A program made the translations under genes and the position numbers. Under the pieces are notes generated by a model, which made no database searches, was not told where the DNA came from, and saw nothing but the letters and a program-made list of their open reading frames with translations. A DNA stretch of 64,000 nt, taken from contig JAWKUM010000003.1 of the NCBI GenBank assembly GCA_041398545.1, forward strand, positions 222,385 through 286,384. The letters are read 5' to 3'. The DNA is from Planctomycetota bacterium. Its GTDB lineage: Bacteria; Planctomycetota; UBA1135; GCA-002748355. This document shows positions 11,410 through 34,348 of the stretch, in pieces (the stretch's first letter is position 1; each line of letters starts with the position of its first letter).

Positions 11410-11752
11410 CTCGCTAGCGAGCTCGGAGAGAGCGGAGAGGCTGAGCCCGACAAGATGTCCGCGGAGCGGTCTTCCCCTCGATGACGTGAGACCGGATCGC
11501 GGCCAGAGCGCACCAGCCCGGTTCATGCGGGTCGAGCGATCGTCTCCGATCGAGGGTCGTGTCGTCCCTTGCCGGAGATCGTCCCATTGCCACGCTGCGT
11601 GCAACCCTTATGGGGTCCCACGCATCGTTGCAAAGCGCCTCTCCGGCCCGTCGATCATCTCCCGCCCTCGAGGAGACGCCCGAACGCCTGCAGGATGCTG
11701 GGCGCGCCAGCCACGAGCCGGCAACCCACGCCCACGAGGGAAGGACCGCCGT

Positions 11753-18722: not shown

Positions 18723-19439
18723 ATGCGGGTTCAGCTCCCTTCACGCCGAGCAATGGTGATCTCGCGAGGGATTGCATCGCTGCTGTGTTCCTTGGTCATC
18801 GTGCCTTCCGGCTTTTGCGCTTGCCCTCAGACCAGCACTCCCGGAGTTTCGGTCACGGCAAGGACGCTGACCAAGGTCAACTGCTACGCCAAGGCTGAGT
18901 CGGAGGCACGGGTCAAGGAAGTTCCCGCTGACAAGGCGTTCGCGAGGTCCGTGAAGGTGGCCTCCTCCGAATCCAACGCCAGAGCGGACGTTACGGCAGG
19001 GCATTGGACGCGAGAAACACCCACTCGCGCGACGACGATGGTTTACGTCTCGAGCGCAGTGTCACTCCGATTGTCGAAGAAGGCCAATGCCATAGTCCAC
19101 ACCGCCGCAGACACAACGAACCCTGTCAAACATGGGTTCGAGTTCAAGCTGACGGCACCAGTCAAGACAACTGGAACACTGACCTTGACGATCTCCGGCC
19201 GTAGCACGCAGGGCGCGACGGATCAGTTCGATATCGTCGTCAAAGGGGATGGATGGTCCAAGAAACTCGCCTCGAGCAGCGACAAGCGCTTCGCGAAAAC
19301 GGTACTTCCCAACGTCTCCATTGACCCGACCGGGCTGATCATCGAAATCCACGGGTTGGCCGTGGCCAGCCTCACCGACAAAGGTCAATGCTCAGCCATG
19401 GGGCGCGCTTCAGCCCGCTTCGACGTCATCAGGCAATAG
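18723..19439 (+). CDS. Secreted hypothetical protein
   Basis: Track ORF 18681..19439; start preferred at MRVQLPSRRAMVISRGIASLLCSLVIVPSGFCA (signal-peptide-like). Ser/Thr/Ala/Lys-rich beta-type sequence. No motif recognised. Confidence 0.55.
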   Translation: MRVQLPSRRAMVISRGIASLLCSLVIVPSGFCACPQTSTPGVSVTARTLTKVNCYAKAESEARVKEVPADKAFARSVKVASSESNARADVTAGHWTRETPTRATTMVYVSSAVSLRLSKKANAIVHTAADTTNPVKHGFEFKLTAPVKTTGTLTLTISGRSTQGATDQFDIVVKGDGWSKKLASSSDKRFAKTVLPNVSIDPTGLIIEIHGLAVASLTDKGQCSAMGRASARFDVIRQ

Positions 19440-19450
19440 GGGGAGACCAG

Positions 19451-21463
19451 ATGCGGCTCAATTCGGTCTTCATTGTCGGTCTAGCATCTCTGGGCTTGTC
19501 TTGGCTCGGTGTGGGAGTCAGGGCTCAGGCTGTCATCCAAGTTTCCTCGTATGGCGCTGTTGTCAACGACGGCCAGAATGACCTTCAAGCGATCCGTGCT
19601 GCCATTGACGATCTGCCCGCCTCCGACGCGATCCTGCGCTTCGAGATCGGAACCTACGATCTCTATCCACGGGAGGAGCCTCCTACCGGACTCGGAACCC
19701 CGACTCCGGCCGGGGTGTTCCCGGTCAAGACCATGTTCGGCCTCGTGTCCAAAGCGAGGATCACCGTTGACGGCCAGGGCGCAGTCCTGATGTGCCATGA
19801 CTTCCTGCCCGACCAGCCGATCAACTCCAGCTACTACAACCTGTTTGCTTGCACCGATTGCACCGACATCGAGATCAGGGACCTGACGGTCAACATGTCG
19901 CGACTGCCGTACACGATCGGAACGTGTACGCAGATTGCCGGCGACCCAGTGGTAACAAATGTAGCGAACAGGTATTTCAGGATCGACATCGATCCGAGCT
20001 TCTTTGCCACCGGGTCTCTGCAAAACATGACAATGCACACCCTGTTGAATTGGCGGTCTGGGCATCCGAACGGCCAGAATTTCTATTACGTCCAACAGCA
20101 ACCAGCAAAAACGTTTGGCTCTGACTTTTATGTTGGCCAGATTACATCTGGAACGATTCACGACATCAAGGGGAGGTTCCCAATTGGGCCAGGCACATTT
20201 CCTAACGATCCTGGCTGGGTAATGATGAACGAGCTCAAGGCTCCCGGAGCCATCGGGCCAGATGATCATGGGAGGTTGCAGCTCGGAGACCAAGTCGTGA
20301 TTGCGCATCAGTCTAGTTACTACATCGCGTTCATGTTCGTGGATTGCACCCGTAGCTTTCTCACAAGCCTCACGGTGCACACCTGGCCGGGAATGGCGGT
20401 CAATCTCCTGCGCGACCGAGATGTCGTCATCGATGGCCTGCAGGTTCTGCCAGATCCGGCACGGCCATGGCCGGTTACGACTACTGCCGATGCCATCCAT
20501 GTCGCCAACACCGCAGGGACTTTGCAGGTCCATGATTGCCACCTCGAGGGGATGCTCGACGATGGATTCAATTCGTACGTGAATGCCCTGCCTGTAACAG
20601 CAATCGTCTATTCAAACGGGGTTCCCACCGTAAACGCCGTGCCCCGGTTCCCCCTGTGGATCTTCGACCCTGGTTCGACCTGGGAGTTCTACGATCAAGA
20701 CATGATCCCACTTGGGACACGACCGCTCGTCCTTTCGCAGAATGTCACGAATCCATCCACCCATCTGTTGACGTTCGCTAGCGTCCCTATTGGGAACATA
20801 GCCTACGTCTGCAATCTTTCCCATTTTCCGGATACGACAGAGATCGTCGGGACAACCGTCGCCCGGAATCGTGGCATGGGGTTGATCCTGAGGAGGAACA
20901 CCCATGTCGACCAGTGCCTTTTTGAATGGATCACCGGTTCCGGGATCGTGGTCTCTCCTTCGATTGGCTTATGGGACGAAGGGCCTGGCGGGTCGAACGT
21001 CCTGGTCGAAGGCTCCCTGTTACAATATTGCAACCGCGGTTGGGGGTTACACGACGGGGGAGCCACTGAGGGTACGATCAGCGTAAAAACACACAAGTTT
21101 GTCAATGGAGCTTGGACAACCGGTCCTGTGGGCTCGATCCAGGACGTCGTCCTGAGGAACCTGACGATCCAGGATTCTGGGGGTGCCTTGGTGTGCGTCC
21201 GGTCCACGAACAGGTTCACGATCGATCAGTGCGCCCTGGGTGCATGTAATGATCTTGGATATTTGCTCACGGATCGAACAGCAGATCCACAAGATGGGGG
21301 GAGGGATCGGTACGCTGCCGAGTCTCTTTTGTTCTTTACCGAGTCGCAGGACATCACGATTACGAACAACTTCTTCACGGGAGCGGGGACCTATCTCAAC
21401 TCCGACAGAACTTGGCCGATGATCTTCGGATTTTATACCAAAACCAACAACACCGGATTCTAG
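19451..21463 (+). CDS. Secreted right-handed beta-helix (pectate-lyase-fold) protein
   Basis: Track ORF 19388..21463, starting at MRLNSVFIVGLASLGLSWLGVGVRAQA (signal peptide). The N-terminal VSSYGAVVNDGQNDLQAIRAAID resembles the pectate_lyase_3 / GH28-like entry motif. Repeated ~22-25 aa Asn/Gly/hydrophobic turns downstream. Confidence 0.7.
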   Translation: MRLNSVFIVGLASLGLSWLGVGVRAQAVIQVSSYGAVVNDGQNDLQAIRAAIDDLPASDAILRFEIGTYDLYPREEPPTGLGTPTPAGVFPVKTMFGLVSKARITVDGQGAVLMCHDFLPDQPINSSYYNLFACTDCTDIEIRDLTVNMSRLPYTIGTCTQIAGDPVVTNVANRYFRIDIDPSFFATGSLQNMTMHTLLNWRSGHPNGQNFYYVQQQPAKTFGSDFYVGQITSGTIHDIKGRFPIGPGTFPNDPGWVMMNELKAPGAIGPDDHGRLQLGDQVVIAHQSSYYIAFMFVDCTRSFLTSLTVHTWPGMAVNLLRDRDVVIDGLQVLPDPARPWPVTTTADAIHVANTAGTLQVHDCHLEGMLDDGFNSYVNALPVTAIVYSNGVPTVNAVPRFPLWIFDPGSTWEFYDQDMIPLGTRPLVLSQNVTNPSTHLLTFASVPIGNIAYVCNLSHFPDTTEIVGTTVARNRGMGLILRRNTHVDQCLFEWITGSGIVVSPSIGLWDEGPGGSNVLVEGSLLQYCNRGWGLHDGGATEGTISVKTHKFVNGAWTTGPVGSIQDVVLRNLTIQDSGGALVCVRSTNRFTIDQCALGACNDLGYLLTDRTADPQDGGRDRYAAESLLFFTESQDITITNNFFTGAGTYLNSDRTWPMIFGFYTKTNNTGF

Positions 21464-21473
21464 GAGAGAATCC

Positions 21474-23192
21474 ATGTCACGCTGGATCACTCGCAGGCCC
21501 CCATGCGGATGGGCATGGCTCCCCGGCTCCGTGGGCAGGTGCATGCTTCTGCTTTTTGCTACCTTGCTCCTGGTCGCCAACCCGGAGGCGCAGACACATC
21601 TCTACACCCACTACGGGGACAAGGCCGGACAGTGGTTCGGTGGTAGCGTCGCCATCGTCGGCGATACCGACAGGGATGGGTTCGATGACTACGCGACCAC
21701 CTCGGAGTGGTACCCGCCTTCGGCCTCTGGTGGAGATGCGGTGCGGCTGTACTCAGGGCGAGACGGGCATTTGATCGGCAAGGTGCCGCTGCCTGGCCCC
21801 GGGAGCGCCACATCAGTATCTGGGTTGGGGGACATGGACAGTGACGGCCATGCTGACTTCGGGATCTTGATCAATACGACGGTGCTGATTGGATATCAGT
21901 TTCATTCAGGAAAAACCATGCAGATGATTGCCAAGGGATCTTGGCCCTTGTCGCTACAAAACGGAAAAATCCGCCCAATTGCAGATCTTGATCACGACAA
22001 TATTCCCGACGTTATTATTAGTAGTTCAGAGTATTCAAACTCTGATCGGGTCGTGATCGTATCTGGAAAGTCAGGGAAGATAATCTTGGATCTCAAGCCT
22101 GGCGGGCTCAACTACACCTATTTTGGCCATTCGGTTTCAAGGGCTGGAGATGTAAACGGAGACGGGATCGAGGACTTCCTGGTCGGCGATCCGCTGTTCG
22201 GAAGCAATCCAACCTATAATTTCTACGGGCCAGGACGCGCATGGTTGTTCTCTGGGGCGAACGGAGGGGTCATCTACACGTTCTGGGACACGACCTACAA
22301 ACTTCCGTCTCCGTCGCCAGGCTTTGGGAGTTCCGTATGCGGTTGCGGTGATCTTGACGGTGACAAGGTTCCCGATCTCGCCATCGGGTGCCCGGGATTC
22401 GACGGCAACGGCACGGACGCCGGCGCCGTGTTTATCTACTCGGGCAAGACCGGTAATCTCTATCGTACCCTGCACGGCCCTGTCGCAGGATCATACTTGG
22501 GGTGGTCGGGGGCCAACGTGGGCGATTGGAACCGGGACGGCTATCCTGATCTGGCTTGTGGTGGGCAAACATTTCTTCCAGGCAATCAAGCTGCAGGTGT
22601 CGTGCGAGTCATTTCTGGCAAGGACGGAAAGGAGTTCGCCACCATTGTCGACGACAAGGTTGATATGGGATTGGGATCGTGCCTGAACGCCGATGGAGAC
22701 ATCGACGGAGACGGCGTCCGGGATCTGGTCGCGGGTCTGTCGCCAGCATCCTGGGCAAGCAACAACTTGTGGTACTTCAAGTGCTACTCCGGCGCCGGCC
22801 GCTCGCTCTGGAGCGATACGCACAGGGTCTCTGTGGCCGCTCAGGATATGCAGGTCCTGACCCTCGAGGCCGGGGCCGGCCAGGCGGGCAACCCCTATCT
22901 CGTGCTCGGCAGCCTTGCCGGGATCAACCCAGGGCTACAACTAGGTACGCATCTCCTTCCTCTCAACCTCGATCCCTACCTTGTCTGGACGGCGACCGTG
23001 CCCAACAGCCCCTTCCTGCAGGGCTCACTCGGGCTGCTCGATGCAAAGGGGACGGCCAAGATCCAGTTCGTGGCTGGAGCGGGCTTTCCTGCTGGATTGG
23101 CCGGCCTGCGCATGGATCACGCAGCCGTAGTCTTCGGCAACACGGGGATCGCCACGGTCAGCGATTGGGTCCCGCTGCTGCTGGAGAAATAG
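21474..23192 (+). CDS. FG-GAP / integrin-alpha-like beta-propeller repeat protein, secreted
   Basis: Repeated FG..(V/L)...GD.(D/N).DG..D motifs (GDTDRDGFDD, GDMDSDGHAD, GDVNGDGIED, GDLDGDKVPD, GDWNRDGYPD, GDIDGDGVRD). Hydrophobic N-terminus CMLLLFATLLLVA. Confidence 0.8.
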   Translation: MSRWITRRPPCGWAWLPGSVGRCMLLLFATLLLVANPEAQTHLYTHYGDKAGQWFGGSVAIVGDTDRDGFDDYATTSEWYPPSASGGDAVRLYSGRDGHLIGKVPLPGPGSATSVSGLGDMDSDGHADFGILINTTVLIGYQFHSGKTMQMIAKGSWPLSLQNGKIRPIADLDHDNIPDVIISSSEYSNSDRVVIVSGKSGKIILDLKPGGLNYTYFGHSVSRAGDVNGDGIEDFLVGDPLFGSNPTYNFYGPGRAWLFSGANGGVIYTFWDTTYKLPSPSPGFGSSVCGCGDLDGDKVPDLAIGCPGFDGNGTDAGAVFIYSGKTGNLYRTLHGPVAGSYLGWSGANVGDWNRDGYPDLACGGQTFLPGNQAAGVVRVISGKDGKEFATIVDDKVDMGLGSCLNADGDIDGDGVRDLVAGLSPASWASNNLWYFKCYSGAGRSLWSDTHRVSVAAQDMQVLTLEAGAGQAGNPYLVLGSLAGINPGLQLGTHLLPLNLDPYLVWTATVPNSPFLQGSLGLLDAKGTAKIQFVAGAGFPAGLAGLRMDHAAVVFGNTGIATVSDWVPLLLEK

Positions 23193-23282
23193 AACGCAAC
23201 ATTCGCTGGCCGGATCCGCTCGGTCGCGGTCAGCCAGTGGTGACAGGCGAGGGTCTCGTCTTGCACGGGCCCGCTTGCGGCG

Positions 23283-23302
23283 GGACCCATGCAAGTGGGT
23301 CC
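23283..23302. terminator. Hairpin between convergent genes (FG-GAP gene and pfk)
   Basis: GGACCCA-tgcaag-TGGGTCC, a perfect 7-bp stem in the 120-bp convergent intergenic region. Confidence 0.3.
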
Positions 23303-23312
23303 ATCTGAGGGC

Positions 23313-24551
23313 TCAGCCGAAGCGCGCGACGAGTTCCTGCTCGGGCATGCCCGAGGCCTCGGCGAGGCGGGCGCGCTGGACGGGGTCCTCGAGGTGCTCG
23401 CGGTCGAGGCGGATCTGGTAGCGCAGCGAGCAGGTGTAGGTCTCGAGCGTCGTGTCGACGTAGCGGACGCGGGTCCTGCCGGTGCGCTCGTCGCGGAAGT
23501 GCTCGAAGGGGTAGACGAGCATCTCGTTGCCGACGCGGCAGATCACGCCCTGCATGCCGTGGCGCAGGATCGCCCGCATCGCGCCGAAGCCGAGGTCGCG
23601 GGTGTACTCGGCGTCGAACGGGATCGGGTCGGCGCAGCGCAGCTCGTAGCCGATGTTCTTCTCCATGACCTTGACCTCGCGGCCCCGGCTCCGGAACCGG
23701 GCCACGAGCTCGTCGCGGAGGATGCGGCCGAGGGGCAGGTCGGTCAGGCGGATCTTGCCCTTGGGGTCGCGCTCGAGGCCCTCGGTCGACGGCAGCTCGT
23801 CGGGGTCGATGCGCTCGGCCAGGCCCTCGGCGATGACGACGATGCCGTCGGCGCGGCCCTCGGCCATGCGGCGGATCATCGAGCCCTCGATCGGCTTGAG
23901 GATGTCGTCGAGGTGGAGCTTGCCCGCCGGGAACTCCTCGGGGATCAGCGTCAGCGTCGCGCCGGCGGCCTTGCCGATGCCGTGGGCGAGGTGCCCGCTG
24001 TGGCGGCCCATCGTCACGGCCAGGTACCAGCGCCGCGTCGTGCGCGCGTCCTCGGCCAGGCTGTGCACGATGTCGACGCCGACGTGGCGGGCGGTCTGGA
24101 ACCCGAAGGTCGAGAAGCCGCCCGGCAGGTCGATGTCGTTGTCGATCGTCTTGGGCACGTGCAGGTAGGCCAGCCCGTGCTTGTCGTTGTGGTAGAGCGC
24201 GTCGGCGGCCGAGGCCGTGCCGTCGCCGCCGATCGTGATCAGGGCGTGGACCCCGAGCCCGTGCAGGCAGTCGTGGACCCGGTCACGGATCTCGGGCCGG
24301 TCGACCGCGCCCTCGCGCGACGTGCGCAGGACCGAGCCGCCGGTCTTGTGGATCCGGGACACGTCGGCGATGTCGAGCTCGAGGACCTGGCCGCAGTCCC
24401 CGCGCGAGACCCACTTGAGGCCGTCGAGCAGGCCGAGGACCCGCCAGCCCCGGTTGCGGGCCTCGATCGTGATCGCGGCGATGACGCCGTTGATCCCGGG
24501 GGCGGGGCCGCCGCCGACCGCGATCGCGACTGTGGGCTGGGGGGTCGTCAT
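23313..24551 (-). CDS. pfk: 6-phosphofructokinase (ATP- or PPi-dependent; not distinguishable by eye)
   Basis: PFK signatures GGGPAPGINGVI, TIGGDGT, PKTIDNDI, MGRHSGHLA. Confidence 0.9.
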   Translation of the reverse strand: MTTPQPTVAIAVGGGPAPGINGVIAAITIEARNRGWRVLGLLDGLKWVSRGDCGQVLELDIADVSRIHKTGGSVLRTSREGAVDRPEIRDRVHDCLHGLGVHALITIGGDGTASAADALYHNDKHGLAYLHVPKTIDNDIDLPGGFSTFGFQTARHVGVDIVHSLAEDARTTRRWYLAVTMGRHSGHLAHGIGKAAGATLTLIPEEFPAGKLHLDDILKPIEGSMIRRMAEGRADGIVVIAEGLAERIDPDELPSTEGLERDPKGKIRLTDLPLGRILRDELVARFRSRGREVKVMEKNIGYELRCADPIPFDAEYTRDLGFGAMRAILRHGMQGVICRVGNEMLVYPFEHFRDERTGRTRVRYVDTTLETYTCSLRYQIRLDREHLEDPVQRARLAEASGMPEQELVARFG

Positions 24552-24561
24552 GCGTCCCGGG

Positions 24562-27225
24562 TCAGCCCTGCTGGATCCGGGTCGCGTCGAGGGCCTGCTT
24601 CATGCGGCGGACGAGGTCCTGGTAGTGGACCCGCGTGGTCTCGCCGAGGTTGCCGGCCTGGAGCCCGGCCAGGCTCGAGTAGAGCTCCATGAGGTTGGCG
24701 CGGGCGGCGGCCAGGGCGTCGTGGGGGACGACGGCCCCGACGTCCTCGGTCGCGAGCGTGAGCAGGACCTCGACGTAGGCCCGCTGCAGGTTGCGGCGGA
24801 ACACGTCGACGTCCTGGCCGGCGGCGACCTCGGAGAACACGCCCTCGCGGAGGCCGCGGAACAGCTCGGCGACCGTGAACGCGGTCTGGCCCTGGGGGAC
24901 CATGAGCTCGCCCTCGACGATGCGGTCGAGCACGAGCGGGTGGAACAGCTGGTAGAGCACCGAGGTCTGGAAGCCCTTGACCTGGTCGACGAGCGACCAT
25001 TCGATCGGGCCGTCGAGCTGCATGCCCCAGTGGTTCCACCGCCACGGCGTCATGCGCGCGAGCTGGTCGGCCGGGAGCCTGTACGGCTTGCTCGCGAAGC
25101 AGTTCTCGAGCAGGAAGGCCAGGGCCTCGCGCTGCTCGTCGGGGGGCACGGGGTCCATCGGCCGCTCGACGCCGGGGTCGCCCTTGTGCACGCGGCTGAC
25201 GCGGACGCCGCCGATCTTCTTGGCCATGAAGCGGCAGCCCGAGGCGGCCTGGCCGAGCAGGACGCTGACGCCGATGCGCTCGAACTGGTGGCCCTCGCCG
25301 GGGCGCACGAGGCGGTCGGCGACCTCGGGCAGGAGCTTGGCGACGAGCTGCATCCGCTCCTCGGCGAACTCCGAGACGTCGCCGATGTCCCAGGCGTTGC
25401 AGTCGGGGTCGACGCCGGCCCCGAACGGCATGTAGTGCAGGGCGTCCTCGTCGGTGCCGTAGGCGTTGCCGGGCTTGCCGGCCTCGGACGCGATCTCGAG
25501 CAGCTTGGGCAGCTCGGCCTCGGGCGCCGGGGCGTCGATCGGCGTGTAGCCGTAGCGGATCGCCCAGACGTCGTACGGGCCGACGCAGCTCGCGTAGTAC
25601 TCGCCCTGGGTCTCGCCCTCGGGGGCGATGTTGATCGCGTTGTAGTCCATGACCGAGCCGACGAGGCCCTCCTTGGCGGTCTTCTCGGCGTCGTTGATCT
25701 CCTTGCCGTCGTGCAGGGTCGAGGCCTTGAAGTTGTGGCGCAGCCCGAGGGTGTGGCCGACCTCGTGCATGACGGTCTCGCGCAGGGCCTGCTCGAGGTA
25801 GGTGAAGGGGACCTTGCGGGCCGGCGTCGCGTCGGCCAGGTCGACCGGCTGCACGCCCTCGGACGGGTCGGGGAGCATGCCCGACAGCATGTGCATCAGC
25901 GTGATCTCCTGCGACCGGTGCATGCCCTGGGTGCAGTAGGCGCGCAGCTTGTGGTCCTGGCCGAGGCTCTCGGCCGTCGAGATCGCCAGGACCTCGGCCA
26001 TCGAGGCCTTGGGGTCGTAGGCCGGGATCTGGAACTGGTACTCGAACCAGAAGCCCCGCATGAGGCTCTCCTCGAACAGGATGTCGGCGTCGAGGATCTG
26101 GCCGGTGTAGGGGTCGACCCGCGACGGGCCGATCGCGCCGAACGTCGACTCGTGCGACGTGATCCAGCGCAGGCTGTTGTAGCTCGCGTCCTCGGGGTCG
26201 AACTGGTCGTCGGAGAGCTGCTGCCGGACCTCGATGGCGTTGACGAAGCCGGCCTCGGCGAAGGCCTTGTTCCAGCCGAGCGCGCCCTCGCGCACGGCCT
26301 TGCGCCACTCGATCGGCACCGTGTTCTCGATCCAGAAGATGATCGGCTCCTTGGGCGGGCTGACCTTGGCCGTGGGGTCGGCCTTCTCGAGCTTCCAGCG
26401 GTTGATGTAGCGGACCCAGCTCGAGAGCTGCTGCATGCGCGCGAAGTCGCGCTTGGCCGTCAGGAAGTAGCCGACGCGATCGTCGGCCAGCCGCGGCCGG
26501 TACGAGCCCGGGGGCGGCAGGATGCGGAAGCTCGTGTGCACGGCCAGGGTCATGTAGCGGGCGTCGCCGCTCGTGTAGACCTGCTCCTGGCTCTGGCCGC
26601 TGTAGGCGCAGTCGACGCGGACCTCGACGTTCTGGCCGAAGGCCTTGCAGTAGTCGACGGTCGTGCGCGACGGGTCGAAGCGGTACGCGCCCTGGAAGTC
26701 CTTGGACACCTGGCGGGCGAGGTCGTGGGGGTCGCGCAGGAGCCAGCCGGTCAGGTCGACGACCATGCCGCCCTTGGGCGACCTGGACAGCAGCGGCAGC
26801 ACGGCCAGGATGGACTTGGGGTAGCCCATCTTGACGGCCTTCTTGAGCGCCTCGCCCTTGCTGGCGACGAAGCGGGGGTTCTCGCGCAGCAGGTAGACCT
26901 TGTCCTCGCCGGGGACGAACTTGACGACCCACTCGTCGATCGGCATGCCCGACAGGAGCCAGCCCTTGCCGAGCCCGGACGCCAGCGTCGAGATCATCAG
27001 CAGCGGCCGGTCCATGACCGGGCGCGGCAGCTCGGCGAGCAGCCGCCCGTCCTTGTAGTAGAGGTTGAACAGCCCCTCCTTGCTCGGCACGTCGGGGGCG
27101 CGTTGCATGCCCTCGACGACCTTGGCGAAGTCCTGGAGCTTGGAGTCCTGGGCCGCGAGCGGCAGGGTCGCGAGGCCCAGGGTGACGGCGGCGGCGAGCT
27201 TGTGCGTGAGCATCTTGGTCGTCAT
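24562..27225 (-). CDS. Secreted zinc metalloprotease (metzincin-type; DUF5117/DUF4953-like large protease)
   Basis: Distal 887 aa of track ORF 24562..28842, starting at MTTKMLTHKLAAAVTLGLATLPLAAQ (signal peptide). HEVGHTLGLRHNF (HExxHxxGxxH) and a downstream GSVMDY Met-turn. Confidence 0.85.
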   Translation of the reverse strand: MTTKMLTHKLAAAVTLGLATLPLAAQDSKLQDFAKVVEGMQRAPDVPSKEGLFNLYYKDGRLLAELPRPVMDRPLLMISTLASGLGKGWLLSGMPIDEWVVKFVPGEDKVYLLRENPRFVASKGEALKKAVKMGYPKSILAVLPLLSRSPKGGMVVDLTGWLLRDPHDLARQVSKDFQGAYRFDPSRTTVDYCKAFGQNVEVRVDCAYSGQSQEQVYTSGDARYMTLAVHTSFRILPPPGSYRPRLADDRVGYFLTAKRDFARMQQLSSWVRYINRWKLEKADPTAKVSPPKEPIIFWIENTVPIEWRKAVREGALGWNKAFAEAGFVNAIEVRQQLSDDQFDPEDASYNSLRWITSHESTFGAIGPSRVDPYTGQILDADILFEESLMRGFWFEYQFQIPAYDPKASMAEVLAISTAESLGQDHKLRAYCTQGMHRSQEITLMHMLSGMLPDPSEGVQPVDLADATPARKVPFTYLEQALRETVMHEVGHTLGLRHNFKASTLHDGKEINDAEKTAKEGLVGSVMDYNAINIAPEGETQGEYYASCVGPYDVWAIRYGYTPIDAPAPEAELPKLLEIASEAGKPGNAYGTDEDALHYMPFGAGVDPDCNAWDIGDVSEFAEERMQLVAKLLPEVADRLVRPGEGHQFERIGVSVLLGQAASGCRFMAKKIGGVRVSRVHKGDPGVERPMDPVPPDEQREALAFLLENCFASKPYRLPADQLARMTPWRWNHWGMQLDGPIEWSLVDQVKGFQTSVLYQLFHPLVLDRIVEGELMVPQGQTAFTVAELFRGLREGVFSEVAAGQDVDVFRRNLQRAYVEVLLTLATEDVGAVVPHDALAAARANLMELYSSLAGLQAGNLGETTRVHYQDLVRRMKQALDATRIQQG

Positions 27226-28793
27226 GAGATCGGGAAGGGCCGGCGGCGGTACTCGTTGCCGACCGACTTGAGGATCCGGCACATGGTCTGGGTCGAGTCC
27301 GCGTCCTCGCGCATGAAGAGGTGCAGGACCGAGTCGAAGGTCGTCAGGTAGGCCGAGGGGTCGACGACGAGCTCGCCGCGGCCCGGGGGCACGAGGTCGA
27401 CGAACAGCGGCGTGACCTCGCGATAGCGCAGGACGTCGAGGAGCGCCGGGATCAGGTAGTCCGGGCCCTCGAGCAGCGGGAAGCGGCGGTGGAGCTGGAA
27501 GACGTTGTCGAAGGCCAGCCGCCGGATGCCGGGGTCGCGCTCCGGGTCGTCGCCGGGCGCGACCATGCGCTGGATGTCGGACAGGAACTTGCCGGCCGAC
27601 AGGAACTCCGGGTGGAGGTACAGCAGCCGGAACCGGTCCGAGAAGCGGCCGCCCTCGAGCAGCGGGGCCAGCGACGCGTGGCGGCGGCAGATGCGCAGGA
27701 CCGCGTCGTCGTCCTCCTTGGTCGAGACCAGCAGGCCGGTCTCGCCCCGGGACGCTCCGGCGGCCAGGAAGCGCAGGGCGAACAGGGTGTAGCGCGTGCC
27801 GGGCTCGGCCAGGACGACGGTCGAGGACAGCTGGACCGGGCCGCTGCCGGCCTCGAAGGCCTCGTGGAACTCGGGCGTCAGGAACGGGATGGGCTCGTCT
27901 CCGCGCGGGGGGACCTGGAGCTGGCTGGTGTCGCGGACGAGCGAGAGCTGGGCCGCGACCGAGGGGTAGACGTGCACCCCCGGCCCGCGCTCCCCGCGGG
28001 CGCCGAGGTAGAGGTCGCGGCGGATGGCCCGGCCGGCGATCGAGAACTGGTGCTTGCCGCGGTAGTAGTACTGGTGTCGCGCCTTGCGGATCTCGAGCGT
28101 GCGCGACTTGAAGGTCCCGATGTCCTCGAGCGAGAGGTGGAGGATGACGTCGGTCGACAGCTCCTCGGCGCTCGGGAACTTCTGCCGGACCGCCGGCTGG
28201 TCCTCGAGGATGAAGATCGAGTGGATCTGGTGGCGCAGCAGCTCCTTGCGGGTCGCGACGAGGGCCTGGCGCTTCTCGTAGTAGTCGAGGTCGGTCAGCA
28301 GGAGCCCGACGTTGTCGAGGCAGACCATGCCGATCTCCTGCGCGCGCAGGTAGTTGGACACCTCGGTCTGGATCCAGTCGAGGTCCACGCGGAACTCGCG
28401 GCCCAGCGTGCCGCCGGCGCCCGGGGTCGCCTGGGTCAGGACGAGGCGGTTGACGCCGCCCGACGGGGCCTCGGTCTCGAACGCGATGCGGTGGGAGGTC
28501 TCGCCCTCGGCCGTCTCGACCGGGTTGGGGGCGCCGTAGAAGCCGCCGAAGTCCTCGACGAGCTTCTTGTGCAGGTCCTTGGGGCTCTGCTCGACCGAGT
28601 AGAACAGGAAGGTCCGCCCGCCCCGGTCGTCGCTCCACCAGGCCCGGACGAGGAACTCGAGCCCGAGCAGGGTCTTGCCGGCGCCCGGCTCCCCCGTCAC
28701 GAACATGAACGCCGCCGAGTCGGACGGGAAGCGGATGCCTCCGCCGAGGATCGCGTCGAGACCGTCGATGCCGGTCTGGATGGTCGAGAACAA
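27222..28793 (-). CDS. KaiC-like / RecA-superfamily two-domain ATPase
   Basis: The N-terminus IQTGIDGLDAILGGGI...FVTGEPGAGKTLLGLEF has the KaiC/RadA-type Walker A. The second homologous domain has a degenerate P-loop (LAEPGTRYTLFALRF, no Lys). The stop overlaps the protease start (ATGA). Confidence 0.8.
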   Translation of the reverse strand: MFSTIQTGIDGLDAILGGGIRFPSDSAAFMFVTGEPGAGKTLLGLEFLVRAWWSDDRGGRTFLFYSVEQSPKDLHKKLVEDFGGFYGAPNPVETAEGETSHRIAFETEAPSGGVNRLVLTQATPGAGGTLGREFRVDLDWIQTEVSNYLRAQEIGMVCLDNVGLLLTDLDYYEKRQALVATRKELLRHQIHSIFILEDQPAVRQKFPSAEELSTDVILHLSLEDIGTFKSRTLEIRKARHQYYYRGKHQFSIAGRAIRRDLYLGARGERGPGVHVYPSVAAQLSLVRDTSQLQVPPRGDEPIPFLTPEFHEAFEAGSGPVQLSSTVVLAEPGTRYTLFALRFLAAGASRGETGLLVSTKEDDDAVLRICRRHASLAPLLEGGRFSDRFRLLYLHPEFLSAGKFLSDIQRMVAPGDDPERDPGIRRLAFDNVFQLHRRFPLLEGPDYLIPALLDVLRYREVTPLFVDLVPPGRGELVVDPSAYLTTFDSVLHLFMREDADSTQTMCRILKSVGNEYRRRPFPIS

Positions 28794-28840
28794 CTGGCTC
28801 TCCGTTCGATTCGTCGGAAGGCGGCCAGCATACTGACCTC

Positions 28841-29476
28841 ATGCTGTCCGAGCCCGAGGACTTCGCGCGCCTGATCCTGCTGCGCCACCCCCAACTCGCC
28901 GACCCCGACCGCGAGCTCGCGCTCGGCCGGCGCGACGGCGAGCTGGCGCGGCGCGGCCGGGCGCAGACCCTGGAGGTCCTCCGCGCCCTGGCCGGGCTCC
29001 GGCTCGACGCGGTCTGGTCGGCCCCGGCCCGGCACTGCCGCGAGGCGGCCGCGGCCCTGGTCGCCGACCTCGAGCTCGAGGTCGGCGTCGACGAGCGGCT
29101 GGCCGACCAGGACCTCGGCGACTGGAGCGGGCTGCGCTGGGACGAGATCCGGGCCCGCGACGAGGCCCTGCTGCGCGACTTCTTCGCCGACTACGGCCTC
29201 GTGGCCCCGCCCGGCGGCGAGCGGCTGGCCGACACCGTCGACCGGGCCCTGGACTGGTGGAACGAGCAGGCCGAGGCGGCCCGCGGCCGGACCTGGCTCC
29301 TGGTCCTGCCGGCCCCGATCCTCGGCGGGCTGGCGGCCCGCCTGCTCGGCCTGTCCCTGCGCCGGGCCCCGGCCCTGAGCCTGCCGGCCGCGGCCCTGGG
29401 CATCCTCGACGTGTTCCGGGACGGGGCCGTGCTCCGCTCCTGGCACCCCCTCTGCCTGCGCGACGACATGCCCTGA
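28841..29476 (+). CDS. Histidine phosphatase (phosphoglycerate-mutase-like) family protein
   Basis: LILLRHP (RHG-type motif), ...ERLADQDLGDWSGLRWDEI, LVLPAPIL. Divergent from the KaiC-like gene with a 47-bp spacer. Confidence 0.7.
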   Translation: MLSEPEDFARLILLRHPQLADPDRELALGRRDGELARRGRAQTLEVLRALAGLRLDAVWSAPARHCREAAAALVADLELEVGVDERLADQDLGDWSGLRWDEIRARDEALLRDFFADYGLVAPPGGERLADTVDRALDWWNEQAEAARGRTWLLVLPAPILGGLAARLLGLSLRRAPALSLPAAALGILDVFRDGAVLRSWHPLCLRDDMP

Positions 29477-29542
29477 GGCCGGGCCCCGGGGCCCCCCGGC
29501 AGGCCCTGGATGTCAGGGTTGTGTTCGGGTAGCGTCCCGGCC

Positions 29543-30994
29543 ATGGAAAGGGCTTCCCCCGCGACCGGGCGGGGGGGAGCGCGACGGCGCTCCCCGACCC
29601 GGTCGGCGCTGCTCCTGCACCTCGACATCGACGCCTTCCTGGCCTCGGTCGCCCAGCTCGTCGAGCCGTCCCTGCTCGGCCTGCCGGTCGTCGTCGGCAG
29701 CGGCGTCGTCGCCTCGCGCTCGTACGAGGCCAAGGCCCGCGGCGTCGAGACCGCGATGCCGATCGCCGAGGCCATGCGGCGCTGCCCCGGCCTCGTGCTC
29801 CGCGAGGGCGACGCCTTCGTCGCCGAGCGCTTCCGCCGGCGCGTCGCGGCGATCCTCGGCGGCTTCGCGCCGCTGGTCGAGGTCGGCTCGCTCGACGACA
29901 TGTACGCCGACCTGTCGGGGCTGTTCGCCGAGGAGCTGTGGCAGGCGCCGCCCGACGCCACGGGCCTCGCGCCGCTCGACCACGCGCTGGCCGCGTGGAC
30001 CGCGGCGCTGCGCGCGCGGGTGCGCGGCGAGACCGGCCTGTCGGTGTCGCTCGGCCTCGGCCCGACGCGGACCCTGGCGCGGCTCGCGACCGACCGGGCC
30101 AAGCCCGGCGGGACCTTCCGCGTGCGGCCCGGCGAGGAGCGCGCCTTCCTCGACCCGCTGCCGGTCGCCAAGCTGCCGGGCGTCGGGCGCCGGACCGCGG
30201 CCGAGCTCGAGCGCTACCGCATCCGCACGGTCGGCGAGCTGCGCCTCGTCGACCGCGCCCTGCTCGAGGAGTGCTTCGGCCGCCGCGGCGGCGACCTGTG
30301 GCTGCGCGCGCGCGGGCTGCCGGCCGGCTCCAAGGACCTCGTCGTGCACGGCGGCGCCGAGCACGGGCGCGCCGGCGGGGCCTTCGGCGCCGACGGCCTG
30401 GCCAAGGAGCTGTCGCGCGAGACGACCCTGGTCGAGCCGTCGGCCGACCCCGGCCTGCTGCGCGCGATGCTGTCGTACCTCGTCGACCGCGCGAGCCACC
30501 GGCTGCGCGGCCAGGACCGGCTGGCCGGCCGGCTCGAGCTGCGCCTGGCGGCCTGGGCCGCCGAGGCGGCCGCCCGGCCGGCGCTGCGCCGCGCGCGCGC
30601 AGCCTCGAGTGGGCGCGCCGGCGCGGCGGCTGCGCGAGCGAGCGCCGGCGCGGCGATGAGCTCGTCGCCGTGGCCCTGGCCCTGCTCGACGAGGCCGTCG
30701 GGTCCCGGCGGCTGCTCGCCGGCGGCGCCGGCGTGTGCCTGCAGGACCTCGAGCCGGCGCACCCCCGCGCCAGGGGCCGACCTGTTCGCGTTGCTGGTCG
30801 CCGAGGGCGGGGCGGGCCTCCGCGGCGACGGCCTTCAGGCGCTGCGGGCGCGCCGGCTCGACGAGAGCCTCGACGCCGTCCGCGCACGCCACGGCTTCGG
30901 CGCCGTCGTCGCCGGGGCCTCGATCGCCCTGCTCGGGAGCCTGCCGCGCACGCGCGACGGCTTCCGGCTCTACGCCCCGTCCCTGAGCCTGTGA
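29543..30994 (+). pseudogene. Y-family DNA polymerase (DinB/ImuB-like) with an out-of-frame central segment
   Basis: Track ORF 29510..30994, starting at MERASPATG. Motifs: LHLDIDAFLASV, SLDDMYADLSG, LPVAKLPGVGRRTA. Between ~30540 and ~30780 the plausible sequence (DELVAVALALLDEAVGSRRLLAGGAGVCLQDLEP) lies in another frame (track ORF 29938..31434), then returns to the original frame (GADLFALL...). Confidence 0.7.
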
Positions 30995-33900
30995 CCGCCC
31001 TGCTGCGCTGCCTGAGCCACTTCAGCTTCCTGACCGGGACGCTGGCGCCGAGCGAGCTGTGCTCGCTGGCCGCGCGCCACGACGTCGCCCACGTCGGGCT
31101 GTGCGACTGGGGCGGTTGCATGCAGCCCGCTGTTCGCGGCCGAGGCCGCCCGCGTCGGCCTCCACGCCCTGCACGGGGTCGTGCTCGGCGGCGGCGCCGG
31201 CATGGTCACGTCATACCTGGCGACGAGGACGGCCTCCTGCTCGCTCTGGCCGCGTCGTGTCGGACTGGCCGGCTCGAGAGACCTTCGGCGTGGCCGACCG
31301 GGTCGCGGCCCTGGTCGACCTCGTCGCCGCCAACCGCGACGGCCTGTTCGTGCTGGCCGAGCGCGTCGCCGGGCTGCTGGCCGCGCTCGGGCCCGACGAC
31401 CTGCGCGTGGCCCCGCCGCTGCAGCCTGGCCTGACCGCCTGCGCCCTCGGCGAAGGCCGCGGCGCGCGCCCGCGCTCGAGCGTCGCGGACGGCGGCCGGC
31501 CCGGGCGGGCGCGCCCGCGGCCGACCCCGGGCGACGACGTCGCGGCCGACGCGCGCAAGGTCCTCGACCTGCCGCGGCCCGACCCGCGGCACCGCCTGCT
31601 GGCCTTCGCCGAGGCCCGTGGCGTGGTCGCCGTGGCCGCGCCCTGGTCGCCTACGGCGGGCCGGCGACCGCGCGCGCCACCGCCTCGCGACGGCCTGCAA
31701 GAAGGGCACGCTGGTCGACCTCGTCGGCGACCGCGCGCTGGCCCTGCGCGGCTCGTTCTTCCCGACGCCGGCCGAGCTCCGCGAGGGCTACGCCGACCGG
31801 CCCGCGGCCCTGGCCGAGGCCGAGCGCCTCGCCCTGCGCTGCACCCTCGACCTGTCGCGGCCGCGGCGCATCGTGTTCCCGTCGGCCGCCGGCGCCCTCG
31901 GCGGCGACCCCGCCGAGGCCGAGGGGCGCGCGGCCGCGGTCCTGCGCGCCCGCGCCGAGGCCGGGTCTTTTCCGCGGCTGTTCGATCGCGCCGGAGCGCC
32001 GGCCCGGGAGCCGCCCGGCCGAGGCCCGGCGCCGGCTCGAGCAGGAGCTCGGCACGATCGCCGAGCTCGGCTTCGCGCCGTACTTCCTCGTCGTCGACGA
32101 GATCGTCCAGCTCGCCCGCGCCCACGGCATCCCGGTGTTCGGCCGCGGCTCGGCCGCCGACAGCCTGGTCGCGCACCGCCTCGTCACCGACGCCGACCTC
32201 GCTGCGCTACCGGCCAGCTTCGAGCGCTTCCTCAACGCCGACCGTTTCCGCCGCGGCGAGGGCGACCCGCTACCTCGACGTCGACCTCGACTTAGCGCGC
32301 CGCCGCGACGAGCCGTCGGCCTCGTCGCGCGCCGCTTCGATGGCGACCGCGTCGCGCTGCTGTCGACGGTGCCGACGCTCGGCTTCCGCGCGGCTCGCGC
32401 GAGGTCGCGCGGGCCCAATGGCCTGCCGCGCCGCTCGACGAGGCCGACCGCTGCGCCCGCGGCCTGCCGCGGACGCTCGACCCCGCCACGGTCGCCGCCG
32501 CCGCGCCGGCGACCCGCCGCTCGCGCCGATCGCGGCCCGCGCCGGAGTTCGGGCGGCGGCTCGCCGGCGCCGCCGGGCCTCGAGGAGCGCCGCCGCGAGG
32601 CGCGCATGCTGCGCGGGGCCTTCGCGCTCGTCGGCGCGCACCGCTGCCTCGGCCTGCACCCGGGCGGGACCGTGCTCGCGCCGGTGCCGGCCCGCGACCT
32701 GATGCCGCTCGAGCGCGCGGCCAAGGGGCTCGTCTGCGTGCAGTGGGACAAGCACGTCGCCCCGCGCATGGGCCTCGTCAAGATCGACCTGCTCGGCAAC
32801 CACGGTCTGTCGATCTTCGAGGACGCGCAGCGCGAGCTGCTGCGGCTCGGCGTGTCGCTCGAGGCCGTCGAGGCCCTGCGCGAGACGCCCGAGGAGGACC
32901 CGCAGGCGGCCGCGCTGGCCCGGGCCGGGCGCACGCTCGGCGTGTTCCAGGTCGAGTCGCCGGGCATGCGCGCGCTCCTGACCCGCGTCGACGCGGGCCG
33001 CTGCGACGACGTGATCCGCGCGCTGGCGCTGATCCGGCCGGGCCCGGCCGGCTCCGGCATGCTCGACCGCTACGTGCGGCGCGTGCGCGGGCTCGAGCCG
33101 ACGCCGGCCCTGCCGCCCGGCCTCGGGCCCGTGCTCGGCGACAGCCGCGGCGTGATGCTGTACCAGGAGGACGTCATCCACGTGCTCGCGGCCCTGACCG
33201 GGCTGCCGCTCGGCCAGGCCGACCTGCTGCGCCGCGACCTCGGCAAGGAGTGCCGCGGGGCGGGGCGACGGGCCGGTGCCGGCGACGGGCCGGCGACGGC
33301 CCGCTTCCACGCGCTGTGCGCGGCCAGGGCGTCGACGCGGCCACGGCCGACGCCTTCTGTCCAGCTCGCCCGCTTCGGCGGCTACTCGTTCAACAAGGCC
33401 CACGCCGTGACCTACGGCCGCCTGGCCTGGCGCATCCTGCGGGCCAAGGCGCAGCAGCCGGCCGCGCTGTTCGCGGCGATCCTGGCCAACGACACCGGCT
33501 ACCACGACAAGCGCGTCTACGTCGAGGAGGCCCGCCGCCTCGAAGCGTGCCGGTGCTCGCGCCCTGCGTACCGCTGGCGCTCGGCTTCCGCGCCGAGCGC
33601 CAGGGCGGCACCGGGGCCGCGCGCTGCGCGTCGGCCTCGGCGAGGTCAAGGGCCTGCCCGAGGCCTTCGGCGAGGCCTCGTCGCCGACCGCGAGGACCGC
33701 GGGCCGCATTTCGCCGCCGACGAGCTCGTCGGCCGGGTCGGGGAGCGCGGCCTGACGGTCGAGGAGGACTGGATCGAGCGGCTGATCCTCGTCGGCGCCT
33801 TCGACCTGCTCGAGGGCACGCGGCCCGAGAAGCTGTGGCGCTTCCGCGTCGGCTTCGGCCGGCGCCGCCGCCGCGCGGCCGCGCCCGGCCCCGCCGGCGG

Positions 33901-34348
33901 CGAGCTGTTCCCCGGCGCGCTCGAGCGCCGCGCGCCGATCATCCCCTGCCTGCCCGAGTATTCCGACGCCGAGAAGGCGCGCCTCGAGGTCGAGCTGCTC
34001 GGCTACCCGATCCGCGCGCACGCGATCACGTACGCGCCGCCGCTCGACGACGCCGGCGGCTGCCTGCCGCTGAGCGAGGTCCCGGCCCACGTCGGCCGGT
34101 CGGTGCAGGTCCTCGGCTGGCTCGCGGCCACGCGCCGCCACCGCACGCGCGGCGGCGAGTGGATGTGCTTCCTGACCCTCGAGGACGCCGGCGGCATGGT
34201 CGAGGCCGTGCTGTTCCCGGCGGTGTTCCGGCGCTGCGGCGGCGAGCTGGCCGGCCAGGGCCGCTACCGCCTGCGCGGCCGCGTCGAGCTCCGCGAGGGC
34301 GCCGTCGCCCTCCACGCCGACATGCTCGAGCGCGTCGACGGGGAGTGA
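30991..34348 (+). pseudogene. dnaE2: Error-prone DNA polymerase III alpha (DnaE2-like), heavily frameshifted
   Basis: GTG at 30991 overlaps the upstream stop (GTGA). Pol III alpha motifs are scattered over all three + frames: LSHFSFLTGT, ELGTIAELGFAPYFLVVDEIV, GRGSAADSLV, FERFLN, RYLDVDLDL, GVFQVESPGMR, GGYSFNKAHAVTYG, ALRVGLGEVKGLPE, and an intact C-terminal OB region (...WMCFLTLEDAGGMVEAVLFP...). I traced more than ten frame switches by eye. Confidence 0.8.

Follow-up and report, generated by a model that had tools for sequence, protein, structure and literature searches.

The window, a 64,000-nucleotide (nt) stretch of a Planctomycetota genome (GCA_041398545.1, contig JAWKUM010000003.1, positions 222,385 to 286,384), carries a gene for a KaiC-like ATPase whose stop codon appears to overlap the start codon of a gene for a large secreted zinc metalloprotease of the metzincin type. 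We propose that this arrangement probably results from the packing of functionally unrelated genes into one operon, and that the pairing of ATPase and protease is an operonic coincidence. The genes and junctions concerned are given below in window coordinates, with lengths in amino acids (aa) or base pairs (bp).

24562 to 27225, minus strand: secreted zinc metalloprotease (DUF5118-DUF5117-DUF4953 metzincin), 887 aa; PF16313 244 bits (cut-off 24.2), PF17148 105 bits, PF17162 27 bits
27222 to 28793, minus strand: KaiC-like double RecA-domain ATPase, 523 aa; Pfam PF06745 (KaiC) 99.1 bits against a cut-off of 26.6
27222 to 27225, minus strand: ATGA stop/start overlap of ATPase and metzincin, read from the sequence, with an alternative ATG at 27213-27211
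23313 to 24551, minus strand: pyrophosphate (PPi)-dependent phosphofructokinase (PFK), 412 aa; PF00365 164 bits, NF041103 514 bits, slightly under its cut-off of 550
28794 to 28840, no strand: divergent spacer of 47 bp between the ATPase and His_Phos genes, read from the sequence
28841 to 29476, plus strand: atypical histidine-phosphatase-fold protein (His_Phos_1), 211 aa; PF00300 114.7 bits against 21.7

Conservation of the ATPase-metzincin pair

Gene neighbourhoods were sampled from both sides of the pair. On the ATPase side, 80 related loci, 45-73% identical, were fetched from species-representative genomes using an alignment of 20 homologues; all are Planctomycetota metagenome-assembled genomes except L051, which is assigned to Luminiphilus and is likely mis-binned. 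When the fetched flanks were searched by tblastn with the window proteins, a metzincin was found in none of the 80, the downstream coverage being at least 1 kb in 74 of them and at least 2.7 kb in 65. On the protease side, none of 80 metagenome loci of metzincin relatives (33-41% identity; at least 1.6 kb of upstream sequence in 49) contained a KaiC-like, His_Phos or PFK gene at an expect value (E) <= 1e-3, and the neighbours of one relative with 40% identity (P0123) are unrelated. These counts speak against the regulatory or stress module that a sequence-only reading of the locus had suggested, and favour the operonic coincidence that it had offered as the alternative.

The pair was found again in one population only, on contigs from five JGI metagenome samples, where the nearest non-self metzincin (P0122, 48% identity, all others being at <=41%) lies directly after a KaiC-like gene. 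The ATPase of this second carrier is 57% identical to that of the window; the two genes are separated by a gap of 75 bp, with no overlap, and the PFK gene is inverted further on. A complete lack of the pairing in related genomes, on which the earlier reading would have given up the link, was therefore narrowly not observed, although the sisters of both carriers are without the protease: in a neighbour-joining tree of the ATPases, the window stands beside L001 and the second carrier beside L010, and neither L001 nor L010 has a metzincin. In total, about fourteen lineages of one sub-clade were sampled; two of them have the pair, and it is absent elsewhere. It is either ancestral in the sub-clade, with several losses, or the product of two insertions, and under either origin the ATPase family does without the metzincin.

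The gene that accompanies the ATPase more regularly on this side is that of PFK, which was absent from the sequence-only reading and starts in the window 10 bp downstream of the metzincin, on the same strand. Of the 12 closest relatives, 11 have PFK immediately after the KaiC-like gene and in the same orientation, the distance ranging from -4 to 176 bp; this adjacency is confined to one sub-clade. In the closest relative of all (L001/L081, 73% identity), a CheY-like response regulator of 122 aa (L081 10135-10503) lies between the KaiC-like gene and PFK. The window metzincin occupies a variable slot within the KaiC-like-PFK operon, the same slot as this response regulator. Two close relatives have a ROK-family (glucokinase-like) gene in divergent orientation to the KaiC-like gene (L089 4857-5858; L090 4845-5801), and their His_Phos gene is pushed further upstream; ROK and PFK together lend a sugar-metabolism flavour to the locus, in that sub-clade only.

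The junction itself deserves some caution. The ATGA at 27222-27225 is present exactly as had been reported, but its use is uncertain, because a second in-frame ATG 12 nt downstream (27213) is equally plausible as the metzincin start, and a plausible signal peptide is obtained from either. Judged from the sequence, the overlap is likely, and the alternative would be a gap of 8 nt. Among co-directional bacterial genes, no junction is commoner than a 4-nt ATGA overlap, and taken alone it is no more than expected for neighbours in the same operon. An overlap of a comparable kind joins the ATPase to a different partner in L002, where the stop codon of the ATPase and the start codon of PFK overlap in a TGATG (11575-11580).

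We therefore favour a scheme in which the KaiC-like ATPase, the secreted metzincin and PFK would form a tightly packed and probably co-transcribed run. The ancestral order in this sub-lineage would have been the KaiC-like gene followed by PFK, with a site between them that accepts other genes: the metzincin in the window and in one other population, and in the closest relative the CheY-like response regulator. Operon compaction, and not a mechanism dedicated to ATPase and protease, would then account for the ATGA overlap. In functional terms, a KaiC-like ring ATPase would burn ATP in its first domain, its probable partner being the divergent His_Phos-fold protein, with which it may interact; the metzincin would act outside the cytoplasm on its own, and a glycolytic PFK would complete the operon.

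Several points weigh against this scheme. A second lineage has the pair as well, with an ATPase that shares only 57% identity with that of the window and a metzincin that is the mutual best match of the one in the window; the adjacency has thus persisted over a long divergence, which could reflect selection rather than the inertia of synteny. This argument is weakened, but not removed, by the fact that the whole block of Y-family polymerase, His_Phos, ATPase, metzincin and PFK is syntenic between the two carrier lineages. The tree that separates the carriers is unbootstrapped. As for the proposed partnership of ATPase and His_Phos protein, local synteny is appreciable in the clade, with an M17 peptidase and an acetyl-CoA synthetase a few kb off in 42-47 loci, and the adjacency of the two genes could in part be inherited order rather than function.

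The KaiC-like ATPase and its divergent neighbour

The protein described in the sequence-only reading, a KaiC-type product of 523 aa with an intact P-loop in its first domain and a lysine-less one in its second, was reproduced on both counts, the PF06745 match falling in three stretches. The gene starts at a TTG, the earliest possible start past the upstream stop, preceded at 6 nt by a GGAG Shine-Dalgarno motif. The two P-loops, read from the sequence, are placed as follows.

28671 to 28694, minus strand: Walker A motif of domain 1, GEPGAGKT, intact
27786 to 27809, minus strand: degenerate Walker A motif of domain 2, AEPGTRYT, without lysine

The state of these motifs was counted across 89 family sequences. 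In domain 1, the Walker A residues G34, G37, G39 and K40, together with E68 and the Walker B residue D160, are invariant in all 89, and T41 is a threonine in 88 and a serine in one. At the lysine position of domain 2, the residue is Y, A, S or G in all 89 and a K in none; E330, P331, G332 and T336 are nearly invariant, and E360, D361 and D429 are also kept. Since the surrounding motif residues are maintained and the lysine is missing family-wide, the degeneration is old and conserved. On these residues, domain 2 is an old conserved pseudo-ATPase domain, which may serve as a scaffold or as a regulatory part, and ATP would be hydrolysed by domain 1, with its complete set of Walker A, Walker B and catalytic Glu.

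Comparison with KaiC reveals a related architecture and a distinct family. An AlphaFold2 (AF2) model of the ATPase (pLDDT 73, domain 2 being better defined) was searched against the PDB with Foldseek, and the top matches were all KaiC, full-length and over both domains (E 5e-19, 17-20% identity); the template modelling score (TM) is only ~0.4, because the orientation of the domains differs. Both proteins have tandem RecA-like domains of ~250 aa each, and they share the N-terminal TGIxGLDxxLGGG, the domain 1 Walker A, the catalytic Glu and the Walker B. In KaiC, however, a Walker A is present in both CI and CII, profile similarity is weak (E 3e-16), and every NCBIfam cut-off for KaiC is missed (PRK09302 61.2 against 408 bits; TIGR02655 28.7 against 546). 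A true KaiC identity was rejected on these scores and on the missing Walker A Lys of domain 2. RadA/Sms proteins are recognised by an N-terminal zinc finger, a KNRFG motif and a C-terminal Lon-like domain; this identity was also rejected, as there was no RadA or Lon match in Pfam or NCBIfam and the C-terminal half is a second RecA-like domain. Profile searches thus confirmed the earlier domain calls and placed the ATPase outside both RadA/Sms and true KaiC. Among the called neighbours of six loci, and in these loci only rather than in whole genomes, no KaiB or KaiA Pfam family was present. PADLOC gave a 19.7-bit P-loop match for the ATPase and none for the other two genes, and a defence system was rejected.

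A full-library profile search returned the full-length family as three or four clusters only at 50% identity. More distant relatives score 180-260 bits; many of them are ~1000-1100 aa long, with extra undescribed regions that provide no functional clue, and they are also from Planctomycetota where named. The ATPase belongs to an uncharacterised KaiC-like family that has so far been seen only in Planctomycetota. The same Pfam domain is found in uncharacterised bacterial and archaeal RecA-like ATPases of the KaiC/GvpD/RAD55 type (such as PH0284, SSO2452 and Pseudomonas KaiC-like proteins), which likewise count as KaiC homologues without an assigned role outside clocks (bioRxiv 10.1101/2022.01.26.477890). 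The solved archaeal KaiC-like examples are single-domain, whereas the present family has a fixed pair of active and degenerate domains and a fixed His_Phos neighbour.

This neighbour, which had been reported as a divergent histidine-phosphatase-family gene at 47 bp, was recovered with a spacer of exactly that length. Among 81 loci, 76 have it in divergent orientation to the ATPase gene, with a spacer of <=200 bp in 65 and a median of 96 bp; the two genes are in tandem in five loci, four of which come from the one JGI population, and one or two genes are inserted between them in a few. A word-indexed search with the His_Phos protein reached the close sub-clade only (16 proteins at >=50% identity). 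It follows from the neighbourhood comparison that the conserved companion of the ATPase is the phosphatase gene and not the metzincin, albeit a phosphatase with an incomplete catalytic core. Other genes recur nearby across the 80 loci, namely housekeeping MoaD/E, DnaJ/GrpE and GroEL, in a clustering of open reading frames (ORFs) that is noisy owing to shadow ORFs.

The AF2 model of the His_Phos protein (pLDDT 90.5) superimposes with a TM of ~0.8 on CobC, GpgP, PhoE and PspA. The protein lies under all NCBIfam cut-offs, and it attains the Pfam gathering score and has the alpha/beta fold of branch 1. The catalytic core of the superfamily consists of an Arg-His nucleophile, a second Arg, an acidic proton donor and a second His. 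When residues were mapped by alignment to PhoE and counted over 74 orthologues, R15, H16 and D89 were each kept in 72, whereas the equivalent of PhoE Arg59 is Q (63) or H (11) and never Arg, and that of PhoE His151 is P, S, A or G (with one gap) and never His. The fold, the RH nucleophile and the acidic proton-donor position (Asp for Glu) are thus shared with PhoE (1H2E/1EBB), CobC, GpgP and PspA, and RHPE stands here where branch 1 phosphatases have RHGE/Q. As the second Arg and the second His are absent, half of the phosphate pocket is missing and the protein is an incomplete enzyme. It is a member of branch 1 by fold, not by catalytic core, and it may work slowly, have taken on another purpose or act only as a partner that binds phosphate.

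In one large sub-clade (L020-L079, 26 loci; for example L059 9865-9940), the spacer between the His_Phos and KaiC-like genes is fixed at ~76 nt and contains the conserved blocks CATCTTG, (G/T)TCCAYCGTGGCC and TA(G/C)(C/G)(C/G)T, the last being a TAnnnT-like hexamer 6-8 nt before a GTG start. Such a spacer may consist of two back-to-back promoters giving leaderless transcripts. The window spacer is built differently, with its 47 bp and its GGAG Shine-Dalgarno motif.

It can be asked whether the two proteins form a phospho-signalling pair, in which the ATPase would autophosphorylate, the His_Phos protein would act as eraser, acceptor or reader of the phosphate, and PFK and the protease would be co-regulated outputs. 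We consider this unlikely. Their divergent adjacency, the conserved ~76-nt spacer of one sub-clade, the retention of the nucleophilic His in 72 of 74 orthologues and the full set of catalytic motifs in domain 1 are all consistent with it, as is an invariant EE(F/L)STD segment in the same domain, which aligns weakly (8 bits) to the S431 region of KaiC. In KaiC, however, the kinase activity and the phosphosites (S431/T432) are located in domain 2 (CII), and autophosphorylation is an activity of that domain, which here lacks its Walker A lysine in 89 of 89 sequences; the label of 'KaiC-like autokinase' given in the earlier reading is therefore not supported. Furthermore, the segment aligns better to the non-phosphorylated CI segment of KaiC, normal turnover requires a second Arg and a second His, which the His_Phos protein does not have, and the fold of that protein resembles small-molecule phosphatases and not SixA-type protein phosphatases. 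The adjacency could be inherited synteny, and the PFK gene is adjacent in one sub-clade only. A looser version is advanced only tentatively, with a low probability: the ATPase, with its active domain 1 and pseudo-ATPase domain 2, and the His_Phos protein, with only its nucleophilic Arg-His left, could constitute an undescribed two-protein nucleotide- or phosphate-dependent switch. It would be specific to an uncultured Planctomycetota lineage, would be expressed from shared back-to-back promoters and, in this sub-lineage, would head an operon that includes PFK and, in the window, the protease as well. The literature library searched contained no paper describing the KaiC-like family or its pairing with a His_Phos gene.

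The metzincin

The secreted zinc protease of 887 aa was also confirmed, with the complete three-domain architecture of DUF5118, DUF5117 and DUF4953 (Met-zincin). Its sequence features are these.

25735 to 25767, minus strand: zinc-binding motif HEVGHTLGLRH (HEXXHXXGXXH), read from the sequence
25642 to 25656, minus strand: Met-turn region SVMDY, read from the sequence
27151 to 27225, minus strand: predicted signal peptide MTTKMLTHKLAAAVTLGLATLPLAA, with a basic n-region, a 16-residue hydrophobic core and a site between AA and Q, as judged by reading the sequence

In an alignment of 16 family sequences, the residues H487, E488, H491, G494 and H497 are invariant, as are S524, M526, D527 and Y528. 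The metzincin is predicted to be catalytically competent. It shares all the invariant residues of the DUF5117/DUF4953 family (PF17148/PF16313), from which it shows no functional difference, and is a divergent member of it. Of 8000 candidates scored, 7149 were significant, which makes for a very large family; it has no solved structure, the best PDB sequence match having an E of 0.006, and no paper naming DUF4953 or DUF5117 was found in the literature library searched. The protein would be an ordinary exported member of the DUF4953 family, acting outside the cytoplasm independently of the ATPase. Its GC content at third codon positions (GC3) is 0.995, against 0.985-0.99 in its neighbours, and its codon usage is native. 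Because both match the neighbouring genes, the metzincin has long been resident; a recent horizontal acquisition was rejected on the same measures, which set it apart from the foreign genes at 19.4-23.2 kb.

A true module of ATPase and metzincin, in which the ATPase would control the expression, folding or export of the protease under stress and translational coupling would fix their ratio, is in our view improbable. Its attraction lies in the shared strand, the ATGA overlap and the stretch between ATPase and metzincin, which is free of terminator-like sites, as well as in the same gene order in the divergent second population, with an ATPase identity of 57% and a metzincin identity of 48%, the metzincins being reciprocal best matches. 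Against this stand the absence of the pair from both sets of 80 loci and from the sisters of both carriers, the 75-bp gap of the second carrier, from which it follows that the coupling is not conserved, and the occurrence of the same kind of overlap between ATPase and PFK in L002. In addition, the ATPase motifs are invariant in genomes without the protease, so that the function of the ATPase cannot depend on it. Operon packing remains the preferred explanation of the junction.

The polymerase cassette, the wider window and implications

Beyond the His_Phos gene, the window continues with two polymerase genes, and the stretch 28841-34348 as a whole resembles a mutasome cassette in which His_Phos takes the usual place of imuA.

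29510 to 30994, plus strand: Y-family DNA polymerase gene, 33 bp past the His_Phos gene; PF00817 114.5 bits, under the NCBIfam Pol IV cut-offs
31181 to 34348, plus strand: DnaE2-like (error-prone Pol III alpha) gene, true start uncertain; NCBIfam DNA polymerase III alpha and error-prone polymerase matches, all under cut-off

By eye, the Y-family gene has SLDD where DinB has SLDE. A Y-family gene is found on the His_Phos side in ~12 of the 80 related loci, and DnaE2 was seen in two loci (L026 and L043); most loci have no Y-family gene within 10 kb, and the His_Phos gene of the closest relative stands at the head of an operon for histidine biosynthesis. The examined stretch from 23.3 to 34.3 kb showed no imuA-like gene, and no SOS box was identified, no validated motif having been used. 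Whereas ImuA, a RecA homologue, has one domain and no ATPase motifs, the RecA-type gene of the window is divergent and encodes a two-domain protein that is ATPase-competent. The order of a Y-family polymerase and a DnaE2-like gene, with a RecA-superfamily gene alongside, is shared with ImuA-ImuB-DnaE2 cassettes, and mutasome variants without ImuA have been documented, for which RecA-like partners are proposed (PMC6511836). That the KaiC-like protein, whose gene diverges from the cassette, serves it in the ImuA/RecA role is nonetheless very improbable, given its different build from ImuA, the His_Phos gene instead of imuA before the polymerase, and a linkage between cassette and KaiC-like gene in a minority of loci only.

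The composition of the window bears on how its genes are called. The GC content is ~72% and GC3 is ~0.99 in native genes, at which wrong frames stay open for kilobases and many Arg- or Pro-rich shadow ORFs appear; mechanical ORF lists are unreliable here for this reason. An ORF of 1426 aa listed at 24562-28842 was rejected as a high-GC artefact, the protease frame running open across the ATPase gene. Just beyond PFK lies a foreign island (19388-23192, plus strand), comprising a right-handed beta-helix protein of 691 aa and an FG-GAP repeat protein of 572 aa, with a GC3 of 0.67-0.68 against 0.985-0.995 in the flanking genes. Scanning the entire window for Rfam families and tRNAs returned nothing, and no tRNA gene is present in it. 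A promoter and terminator scan of 23000-29600 yielded no sigma-70-like promoter and one terminator-like site within the ATPase gene, a count that does not exceed that of shuffled sequences and is uninformative.

Taken together, the locus does not represent a new kind of system; it comprises a new, as yet uncharacterised family of known kinds and a single conserved pairing that is mildly unusual. Had a KaiC-type ATPase been coupled to a secreted protease, this would have been a new kind of regulatory module, and the evidence against it saves the corresponding follow-up effort. More generally, a stop/start overlap on its own is a weak argument for functional coupling. Among the KaiC homologues outside clocks, most of which are unexplained, the ATPase and its His_Phos neighbour now provide a concrete pair that can be tested, and, if the proposed switch were real, it might tie central carbon flux or secretion in these Planctomycetota to its state.

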